The notes under the pieces are model-generated. The model was not told the origin of the DNA, did no database searches, and saw only the letters and a list, made by a program, of their open reading frames with translations. From the NCBI RefSeq assembly GCF_011045215.1, contig NZ_CP049201.1: DNA of 64,000 bases. One strand, given 5' to 3'. Numbering within the stretch: position 1 is the first letter of the stretch; every line of letters starts with the position of its first letter. Position numbers and translations under genes: made by a program. Source of the stretch: Escherichia coli. Its GTDB lineage: Bacteria; Pseudomonadota; Gammaproteobacteria; Enterobacterales; Enterobacteriaceae. Positions 59,785-60,145 of the stretch are shown here, one piece after another.

Positions 59785-60145
59785 GCACGACTGCCAGATG
59801 CGGCGCAAACGTCTTGTCCGGCCTACGGATGGCGCGAGAATTTGTAGGCCTGATAAGACGCGTTAGCGTCGCATCAGGCATCTGCGCACGACTGCCGGAT
59901 GCGGCGTAAACGCCTTATCCGGCCTACGGATGGCGCGGGAATTTGTAGGCCTGATAAGACGCGCAAGCGTCGCATCAGGCATCTGCGCACGACTGCCGGA
60001 TGCGGCGTGAACGCCTTGTCCGGCCTACGGGTGGCGTGAGAATTTGTAGGCCTGATAAGACGCGCAAGCGTCGCATCAGGCATCTGCACACGACTGCCGG
60101 ATGCGGCGTGAACGCCTTATCCGGCCTACATTTCGCCCGTAGGCA
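59785..60145. repeat. REP/BIME array, about 3.5 units of ~101 bp
   Basis: cacgactgcc[a/g]gatgcggcg... units begin near 59787, 59887, 59988, 60090. Confidence 0.9.

Follow-up and report, generated by a model that had tools for sequence, protein, structure and literature searches.

The 478-nt spacer between mhpE and mhpT in the E. coli genome studied here (a stretch of 64,000 nt was analysed, hereafter the window) is occupied mostly by a canonical BIME-2, consisting of three tandem 101-bp units followed by a fourth Y REP. We explain the array jointly by its BIME-2 identity, by protection of the 3' end of the upstream mhp message and by partial attenuation of transcription toward mhpT, a reading to which we assign a probability of about 80%. 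The array is real and ordinary, and it was identified correctly in the original prediction for this region. Taken alone it carries little weight, as REP and BIME elements are textbook repeats of E. coli and this array is present in the literature as a rearrangement hotspot beside lac; indeed, the K-12 mhpE–mhpT array has already been published and the properties of the class are likewise known. Two features go slightly beyond the literature, namely, the polarity of the array, which is inverted relative to that of REP325, and a conserved hairpin located upstream of mhpT.

Both flanking genes are readily identified (Table 1). The mhpE gene ends with a TAA codon (59742–59744), whereas mhpT encodes a protein of 403 aa, its start is identical to that annotated in K-12 and a GAGG lies 9 nt 5' of its ATG. 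Xu et al. 2013 reportedly found that growth on 3-(3-hydroxyphenyl)propionate at pH 8.2 requires MhpT. RefSeq annotation of matching E. coli genomes gives the same mhpE and mhpT flanks. Within the spacer, Tandem Repeats Finder (TRF) reports a single array at 59785–60129 with a period of 101, 3.4 copies, 94% matches, no indels and a score of 599, and an independent repeat search returned three 150-nt copies in register with spacing 101/101. The array is far above chance expectation, and sequences of its REP family occur in E. coli genomes at a median of at least 34 sites each. Together with a REP consensus scan and the TIGR03217 and NF008586 matches of the flanking genes, the TRF result bears out the presence of a REP array between mhpE and mhpT. 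The predicted size, about 3.5 units of about 101 bp, is accurate and corresponds to three full units plus the terminal Y REP, and the proposed end at 60145 is defensible if the 9-nt linker and the truncated REP head that follow the repeat end at 60129 are counted. It was also correct to describe the array as the third tandem REP cluster in the window, the other two being located at 24256–24714 and 38931–39835 (TRF and REP scan).

The REPs were placed by printing the units in register and by a Hamming scan against REP consensus sequences, which yielded four Y-type REPs on the plus strand alternating with three inverted Z2-type REPs on the minus strand, with 0–5 mismatches to the consensus. The unit thus reads Y REP, 17-nt short linker, inverted Z2 REP, 12-nt linker. 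The head-to-head linkers are GGATGGCGCGAGAATTT and close variants of it, and the tail-to-tail linker TCTGCGCACGAC, which stands where BIME-2 elements have a flanking motif of the s, l or r type, is constant throughout the array. The distance from the end of the last Y to the mhpT ATG is 93 nt. The array shares with the BIME-2 class the alternating Y/Z2 orientation, the short head-to-head linker, tandem copies, an extragenic position (here between the mhpE stop and the mhpT start) and a copy number that varies among strains, and there is no essential difference between the two. Consistent with this, copies of BIME-2 at one locus are known to be well conserved in sequence and variable in number from strain to strain (PMC3333891). 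Its peculiarities within the class are a degenerate first Y and, at the other end, a decayed Z-type REP head preceded by a different, 9-nt linker. BIME-1, in which one Y/Z1 pair has a long L linker containing an IHF site, can be ruled out, since the REPs are of the Z2 type and in tandem and no IHF motif (WATCARNNNNTTR) is present on either strand of 59745–60222. Moreover, GTAGG/CCTAC is found in every REP, and none of the predicted hairpins is perfectly paired, each having an internal mismatch or bulge. A substrate of TnpA-REP (RAYT) must have a stem with a mismatch and, at its base, the conserved tetranucleotide GTAG (PMC3333891), so that the REPs of the array have the sequence features of such a substrate.

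Table 1. Features of the mhpE–mhpT region (positions are those of the window)
Feature	Position	Strand	Remarks
mhpF	57784–58734		upstream of mhpE
mhpE (4-hydroxy-2-oxovalerate aldolase)	58731–59744	+	TIGR03217 equivalog, 600 bits; RefSeq
Left non-REP spacer, 47 nt	59745–59791	+	first REP begins 47 nt past the mhpE stop; kept in all 11 E. coli loci compared in register
Y REP no. 1, degenerate	59792–59826	+	5 mismatches to Y consensus; RNA hairpin −11.4 kcal/mol
Head-to-head short linker GGATGGCGCGAGAATTT, 17 nt	59827–59843	+	again at 59928–59944 and 60029–60045
Z2 REP no. 1	59844–59880	−	2 mismatches; hairpin −21.9 kcal/mol
Tail-to-tail linker TCTGCGCACGAC, 12 nt	59881–59892	+	again at 59982–59993 and 60083–60094
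Y REP no. 2	59893–59927	+	1 mismatch; −21.3 kcal/mol
Z2 REP no. 2	59945–59981	−	REP consensus scan
Y REP no. 3	59994–60028	+	REP consensus scan
Z2 REP no. 3	60046–60082	−	REP consensus scan
Y REP no. 4, terminal	60095–60129	+	perfect Y consensus match
9-nt linker ATTTCGCCC + truncated REP head GTAGGCA (60139–60145)	60130–60145	+	
RF02564 (naRNA4) matches	59847–59924, 59948–60025, 60049–60126	−	gathering score 59.5
ORFs over the array	59633–59881, 59874–60089, 59975–60178	−	
ORF over the array	60000–60368	+	
Ancestral stem-loop, outside the REP array	60168–60190	+	stem 60168–60175 / 60183–60190, loop CAATGTA
mhpT (3-(3-hydroxyphenyl)propionate:H+ symporter)	60223–61434	+	NF008586 equivalog, 621.6 bits

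At its mhpT-proximal end the array does not pass directly into unique DNA. The linker ATTTCGCCC (other strand GGGCGAAAT) also joins a Z2/Y pair at 62097–62185, and a longer REP remnant, GTAGGCCTGTATCAG..., is retained at the array end in a sister Escherichia lineage (L016). The shared linker and the longer remnant imply that the array ends in a decayed REP, and GTAGGCA is, judging from this sequence context, what remains of an inverted Z-type REP. The whole array is bracketed by an 8-nt inverted repeat, TGACTGCC (59749–59756) and GGCAGTCA (60142–60149), which forms the outermost stem of the predicted fold of the spacer RNA. We also considered whether GACTGCCTAC (60139–60148, minus strand) is a RAYT excision scar in which TGCC/TAC would be the junction of the two published iREP cleavage sites. 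This reading was rejected: the 10-mer is not rarer than chance (1 found versus 2.1 expected, allowing up to 1 mismatch), and since the sister lineage keeps a longer decayed REP at this place, ordinary decay or deletion explains it.

The array is crossed by several open reading frames, which the original prediction rightly regarded as spurious. ORFs of 67–122 codons do exist, and in one RefSeq record (HS-01) PGAP placed a pseudo-CDS, 'hypothetical protein; frameshifted; incomplete', inside the array, which could be taken to mean that real small proteins are encoded here. However, the period of 101 is not divisible by 3, the four longest ORFs have no Pfam match at E<=1 except for a 14-bit chance hit, the ORFs are missing from the majority of strains, which are without units, and the spacer is CDS-free in 10 of the 11 RefSeq records inspected. 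We therefore give practically no credence to the protein-coding alternative; the ORFs are artefacts and should not be called genes in annotation.

To follow the array within E. coli, we searched 5,426 complete genomes of the species with 300 nt of each flank, the array being omitted. Matches were obtained in 4,922 of these genomes, 4,829 of which covered 80% or more of the query. The flank-to-flank span takes discrete values in steps of about 101 bp (about 645, 745, 847, 947, 1048 and 1151 bp). Units were counted in 58 full-length rows, an evenly spread but non-random sample in which laboratory derivatives of K-12 inflate the four-unit class: zero full units were found in 32 of the 58 genomes, one in 8, two in 4, three in 1, four in 12 and five in 1. 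The range is thus 0–5 full units plus the terminal Y, which is the only REP in strains with zero full units, the state of most of the strains sampled. Since a single REP suffices in most of these strains, the extra units are dispensable. The insertion point and the terminal Y are common to all 11 loci printed in register, and the units differ by few SNPs. The three-unit state of the window is uncommon, with 10 records matching the whole 731-nt region at 99% or more. K-12 MG1655 has a 577-nt spacer; locus, insertion point, unit and orientation are the same as in the window, but there are four full units instead of three, a 2-nt deletion in the terminal Y and several SNPs in the units. Furthermore, the 600-nt flanks of PapM-32-1 are 100% identical to those of the window, yet this strain has five units of partly different composition, implying that the number and content of units change more rapidly than the flanks acquire point mutations. 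Units may be gained and lost through slippage, unequal exchange or the activity of the REP-associated transposase TnpA-REP (RAYT).

Among species-representative genomes, a scan with MhpT yielded 40 loci, in which REPs between mhpE and mhpT are confined to Escherichia. In Citrobacter, Klebsiella, Raoultella, Enterobacter and Pluralibacter, mhpE is followed by mhpT after 62–72 nt, and no REP head motifs were found in these spacers; the spacers of Kluyvera and Pseudocitrobacter are 115–123 nt long and also without REPs. BIME arrays with other linkers occupy this site in two Escherichia lineages other than E. coli proper. The spacer of E. whittamii contains two Z2 and two Y REPs, and that of a divergent 'E. 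coli' genome (95% MhpT identity) contains six units of roughly 91 bp. Both arrays have the polarity of that in the window, but their head-to-head linker is 8 nt long (ATTGGCCC) rather than 17 nt. The presence of different units at one site within the genus indicates an old landing place for REPs at which units were amplified independently. The array is a genus-specific repeat, unstable in copy number, that has colonised a spacer whose length in other Enterobacteriaceae is about 65 nt.

As RNA, each REP is predicted to form a hairpin of −19 to −22 kcal/mol on either strand, with the exception of the degenerate first Y (−11.4 kcal/mol). The sense RNA of the 478-nt spacer has a minimum free energy (MFE) of −242 kcal/mol, compared with −181 ± 6 kcal/mol for shuffled sequences (z = −9.6), and the antisense RNA one of −224 kcal/mol (z = −7.0). 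Strong GC-rich hairpins directly 3' of the last catabolic gene could suggest a conventional Rho-independent terminator that fully separates the mhpABCDFE and mhpT units. However, none of the hairpins leads into a U-tract, and a scan for intrinsic terminators found none in 59745–60222; the only terminator-like site in 59600–60400 is at 60257–60277, inside mhpT, and this count equals the shuffle expectation. Nor did a scan for sigma-70-like promoters find any in the spacer, including the part from the array to the mhpT ATG. The spacing of about 65 nt in other genera likewise points to co-transcription, and a complete terminator is accordingly very improbable. Judging from the short spacers of other genera and from the lack of a promoter-like site before mhpT, this gene is probably reached by read-through, and mhpE and mhpT are probably co-transcribed. 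By the same token, the missing intrinsic terminator and the short spacers make attenuation with 3'-end protection likelier than a complete stop. According to this preferred reading, once the mhp operon is induced, RNA polymerase would transcribe into the array, whose RNA could form as many as seven hairpins, each of about −20 kcal/mol. Such hairpins would block 3'→5' exonucleases, giving the mhpABCDFE message stable 3' ends, and would lower transcription into mhpT without abolishing it.

Such a role has precedents. At malE–malF and other intercistronic sites, REPs are said to stabilise the upstream mRNA, as reportedly shown experimentally by Newbury et al. 1987 and Khemici & Carpousis 2004. 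The mhp locus resembles malE–malF in that REP hairpins lie 3' of an operon segment and the downstream gene is expected to be the less expressed one. Genome-wide, tandem gene pairs separated by REPs have a raised ratio of upstream to downstream expression. Furthermore, REP hairpins act as protective 3' stem-loops against 3'→5' exonucleases and, in many transcripts terminated by Rho, form the 3' ends present at steady state (PMC6061677). By analogy with these systems, the array is probably an exonuclease barrier and an attenuator. Its proposed role as the 3' end of the mhpABCDFE transcript, already put forward in the original prediction, is plausible by analogy with REP325 and with the genome-wide mapping of 3' ends.

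One of the closest known systems is the model array REP325. It is likewise a BIME-2 between co-oriented genes, yjdM and yjdN, with six units in K-12, and its Y and Z2 REPs and short linker are near-identical to those of the mhp array (GGATGGTGCGGGAATTT in REP325, GGATGGCGCGAGAATTT here). The two arrays differ in period (100 versus 101) and in the tail-to-tail linker (11 versus 12 nt). The polarity of the mhp array relative to its operon is opposite to that of REP325, so that the mhp-sense RNA is the complement of naRNA4, and its linkers are G-rich (G 31, C 20), whereas those of REP325-sense RNA are C-rich. REP325 stabilises the upstream mRNA, with an effect of about 3-fold or more on the upstream gene, and is a partly Rho-dependent attenuator that cuts downstream expression about 8–10-fold (10.64898/2026.03.23.713779). 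Over the mhp array, windowed C/G ratios are 0.8–1.3, which is not rut-like. Given these ratios, the inverted polarity and the G-rich linkers, Rho loading inside the array seems less likely than at REP325, and because of the inverted orientation the partly Rho-dependent component of REP325 attenuation may not transfer to the mhp array. The alleles with 0–5 units in near-identical flanks, of a polarity opposite to REP325, thus constitute a natural allelic series that could serve as a test of the 'terminator plus stabiliser' model of REPs and of its orientation dependence.

The array could also be selfish or neutral repeat DNA that has no measurable effect on the expression of mhp or mhpT, its copy number reflecting REP proliferation and slippage. 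Indeed, otherwise near-identical strains have anywhere from zero to five units, a single REP is the commonest state, unit composition changes fast between close relatives and other genera have no REP at this site at all. Moreover, the effects of REPs depend on context, and terminal REPs do not generally lengthen mRNA half-lives (10.64898/2026.03.23.713779). On the other hand, exonucleases would hardly ignore seven stable hairpins in a spacer that is transcribed, and the near-identical REP325 has the several-fold effects on upstream and downstream genes given above. The expression bias of REP-separated tandem pairs also speaks against neutrality, which we consider somewhat unlikely, if the strongest of the alternatives.

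The similarity to REP325 extends to the Rfam family naRNA4 (RF02564), which has three matches in the array (87.2, 83.8 and 88 bits), all on the minus strand and thus antisense to mhpE→mhpT; plus-strand scores are 57–62 bits. The K-12 mhp array has four matches, likewise antisense, and the REP325 type locus has six copies of 95–111 bits on the yjdM→yjdN strand, so that both arrays exceed the gathering score. As naRNA4 has been proposed to be a nucleoid-condensing, HU-binding RNA (PMC4550694), these scores would agree with the array consisting of genes for naRNA4-like small RNAs that bind HU and condense the nucleoid, as in the original model of that study. However, the best matches run antisense to mhpE→mhpT here but sense to yjdMN in REP325, and there is no promoter-like site in or near the array on either strand. 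Furthermore, since the REP325 and mhp units are near-identical except for the tail-to-tail linker, RF02564 in effect recognises any generic Z2–linker–Y pair. Finally, when REP325/naRNA4 was re-examined in 2026, it did not compact the nucleoid, and no REP–REP contacts were detected (10.64898/2026.03.23.713779). A small RNA function of this kind is hence highly unlikely, and naRNA4 matches at the mhp array should not be read as sRNA genes in annotation.

In addition to any role in RNA, the palindromes make the site, as DNA, a hotspot of recombination and template switching and a potential gyrase site. The K-12 mhpE–mhpT array, located at 374.9–375.4 kb and referred to as the cluster 'near lac' (Figure S1), accounted for 20% of the sequenced junctions of lac amplifications and rearrangements, which the authors ascribed to secondary structure (PMC3161906). 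The main role of the array might then be that of a strong transcription-independent gyrase (or cruciform) site which relieves supercoiling downstream of the induced mhp operon. This would fit the secondary structure implied by the published hotspot behaviour as well as the enrichment of gyrase cleavage sites in a subset of BIME-2 elements, where Y REPs are cut preferentially (PMC6379681), given that four Y REPs are present here. Nevertheless, only a subset of BIME-2 elements is cleaved, neither mhpE nor mhpT is named in the supplementary text of the gyrase map (PMC6379681), and a topological function that the cell needs would be hard to reconcile with variation from 0 to 5 units, which leaves a primarily topological role rather improbable.

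Between the array and mhpT lies a further stem-loop (60168–60190), a mildly new item that is no part of the REP array. The structure, GCGGCTGG-CAAYGTA-TCAGCCGC, is present in all REP-free spacers and in all Enterobacteriaceae loci examined, with two copies in Kluyvera. An alignment of 31 sequences (30 distinct), which are related and include the Kluyvera duplicates and in which the helix is short, has standard pairs in 98.3% of cells. Both-sided (compensatory) changes affect 4 of the 8 stem pairs (17 cells), a value reached by 0 of 500 shuffles, and pairing falls to 22–56% when the partner columns are slid. Loop positions C, A, G and A are invariant. The motif occurs once in the window (60170–60188; 0.02 expected), and no Rfam family matches it at E<=1. 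The presence of G·U pairs on the plus strand mildly favours a sense-strand RNA; folding energies are alike on both strands in Citrobacter and Klebsiella. In the window, the stem is weakened by a U·C mismatch (−10.2 kcal/mol, z = −0.9, versus −15.8 kcal/mol in Citrobacter). A tentative and rather doubtful extension of our reading is that the number of units (0–5) and the inverted polarity of the array act as a strain-specific dial on the mhpT:mhpABCDFE ratio, displacing or taking over the role of this older hairpin, a cis-acting RNA element hitherto undescribed.

Two alternative interpretations of sequences in this region were considered. Reading CTGGCA-N-GC in the hairpin as a sigma-54 promoter is weak, since GG or GC is lost in K. 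pneumoniae, in LSJC7 and in the distal Kluyvera copies while pairing is kept. The TTCACCTGCA box (60193–60202) is too weak to be called an MhpR operator, having only CACCTG in common with the GTGCACCTGGTGCAC palindrome (53316–53334). In the REP-free spacers, a TTCACCTGC box is located 3' of the stem-loop, about 35 nt before the mhpT start.

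The mhpE-mhpT spacer contains a conserved stem-loop (see the table below), in which 98% of cells are paired and four of the eight pairs display compensatory changes in an alignment across Enterobacteriaceae. It is also found in the mhpE-mhpT loci of other genomes L017-L051, some 30-60 nt 5' of mhpT, and in spacers across the family it is followed by a TTCACCTGC box. In Kluyvera, the stem-loop is present in duplicate, and in the window it is weakened by a mismatch. An Rfam search with the window's stem-loop matched no family. Within the mhpR-mhpA control region lies the MhpR operator, the perfect palindrome GTGCACCTGGTGCAC. 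CACCTG is all that this palindrome has in common with the TTCACCTGCA box, which is conserved 5' of mhpT. A terminator-like hairpin was detected inside the mhpT coding sequence, and this one site in the scanned region is in line with the 0.7 expected from shuffles, so that it may have arisen by chance.

Features of the window with their positions (Y, Z1 and Z2, REP types)
Feature	Position	Strand	Description
Tandem array	24256-24714		Period 93, 4.9 copies, 98% identity
Isolated REPs or pairs	31413, 34197, 42559-42639, 46071, 46746		42559-42639 is Y/Z1
Tandem array	38931-39835		Period 94, 9.6 copies; largest in the window
Palindrome	53316-53334		GTGCACCTGGTGCAC
Inverted repeat	59749-59756 and 60142-60149		TGACTGCC / GGCAGTCA, 8 nt; flanks the entire mhp array on both sides
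Stem-loop	60168-60190	+	Conserved; 8-bp stem, loop CAAYGTA; between mhpE and mhpT
Box	60193-60202		TTCACCTGCA, 5' of mhpT
Terminator-like hairpin	60257-60277	+	GCCTGATGCTGACCATCGGGC TTTGTTTTTT, with T-run; 35 nt into mhpT coding sequence
REP pair	62097-62185		Z2(+)/Y(-), 3' of the gene after mhpT

In the predicted fold of the spacer RNA, the two halves of the inverted repeat bordering the mhp array pair with each other as the outermost stem. Every Y REP is preceded by CGACTGCC, and the left copy of the inverted repeat is similar to this sequence, a resemblance by which it may represent a degenerate REP tail.

Among the related loci, L002 from strain OkiPb01695 (NZ_AP042570.1) matches the window's array most closely over its full length (99.2%, likewise with three units); its annotation lists mhpT as a pseudogene with a frameshift. 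A 7.4-kb contig labeled 'MAG: Clostridiales bacterium' (L013, SFGO01000113.1) encodes an MhpT 100% identical to the window's protein in the best tblastn segment and carries the zero-unit E. coli form of the spacer. This contig almost certainly comes from E. coli and was assigned to that metagenome-assembled genome by a binning error. The mhpE/mhpT flanks found no match whatever in 504 of the 5,426 complete E. coli genomes, which indicates that ~9% of them either lack the end of the mhp cluster or have a highly divergent version of it.

Of the REP elements elsewhere in the window, the 4.9-copy array combines Y(+) with Z1(-) REPs, and its linker is short, at 17 nt. A tandem array that has Z1 together with a short linker matches the 'atypical BIME' class better than it does BIME-1 or BIME-2. 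In the largest array, Z2(+) alternates with divergent Y(-) REPs, each having 4-5 mismatches, and its higher-order periodicity (281/375 nt) points to duplication of blocks of three to four units. The head-to-head linker of the REP pair beyond mhpT ends in GGGCGAAAT, the linker that also closes off the mhp array on its right-hand side.
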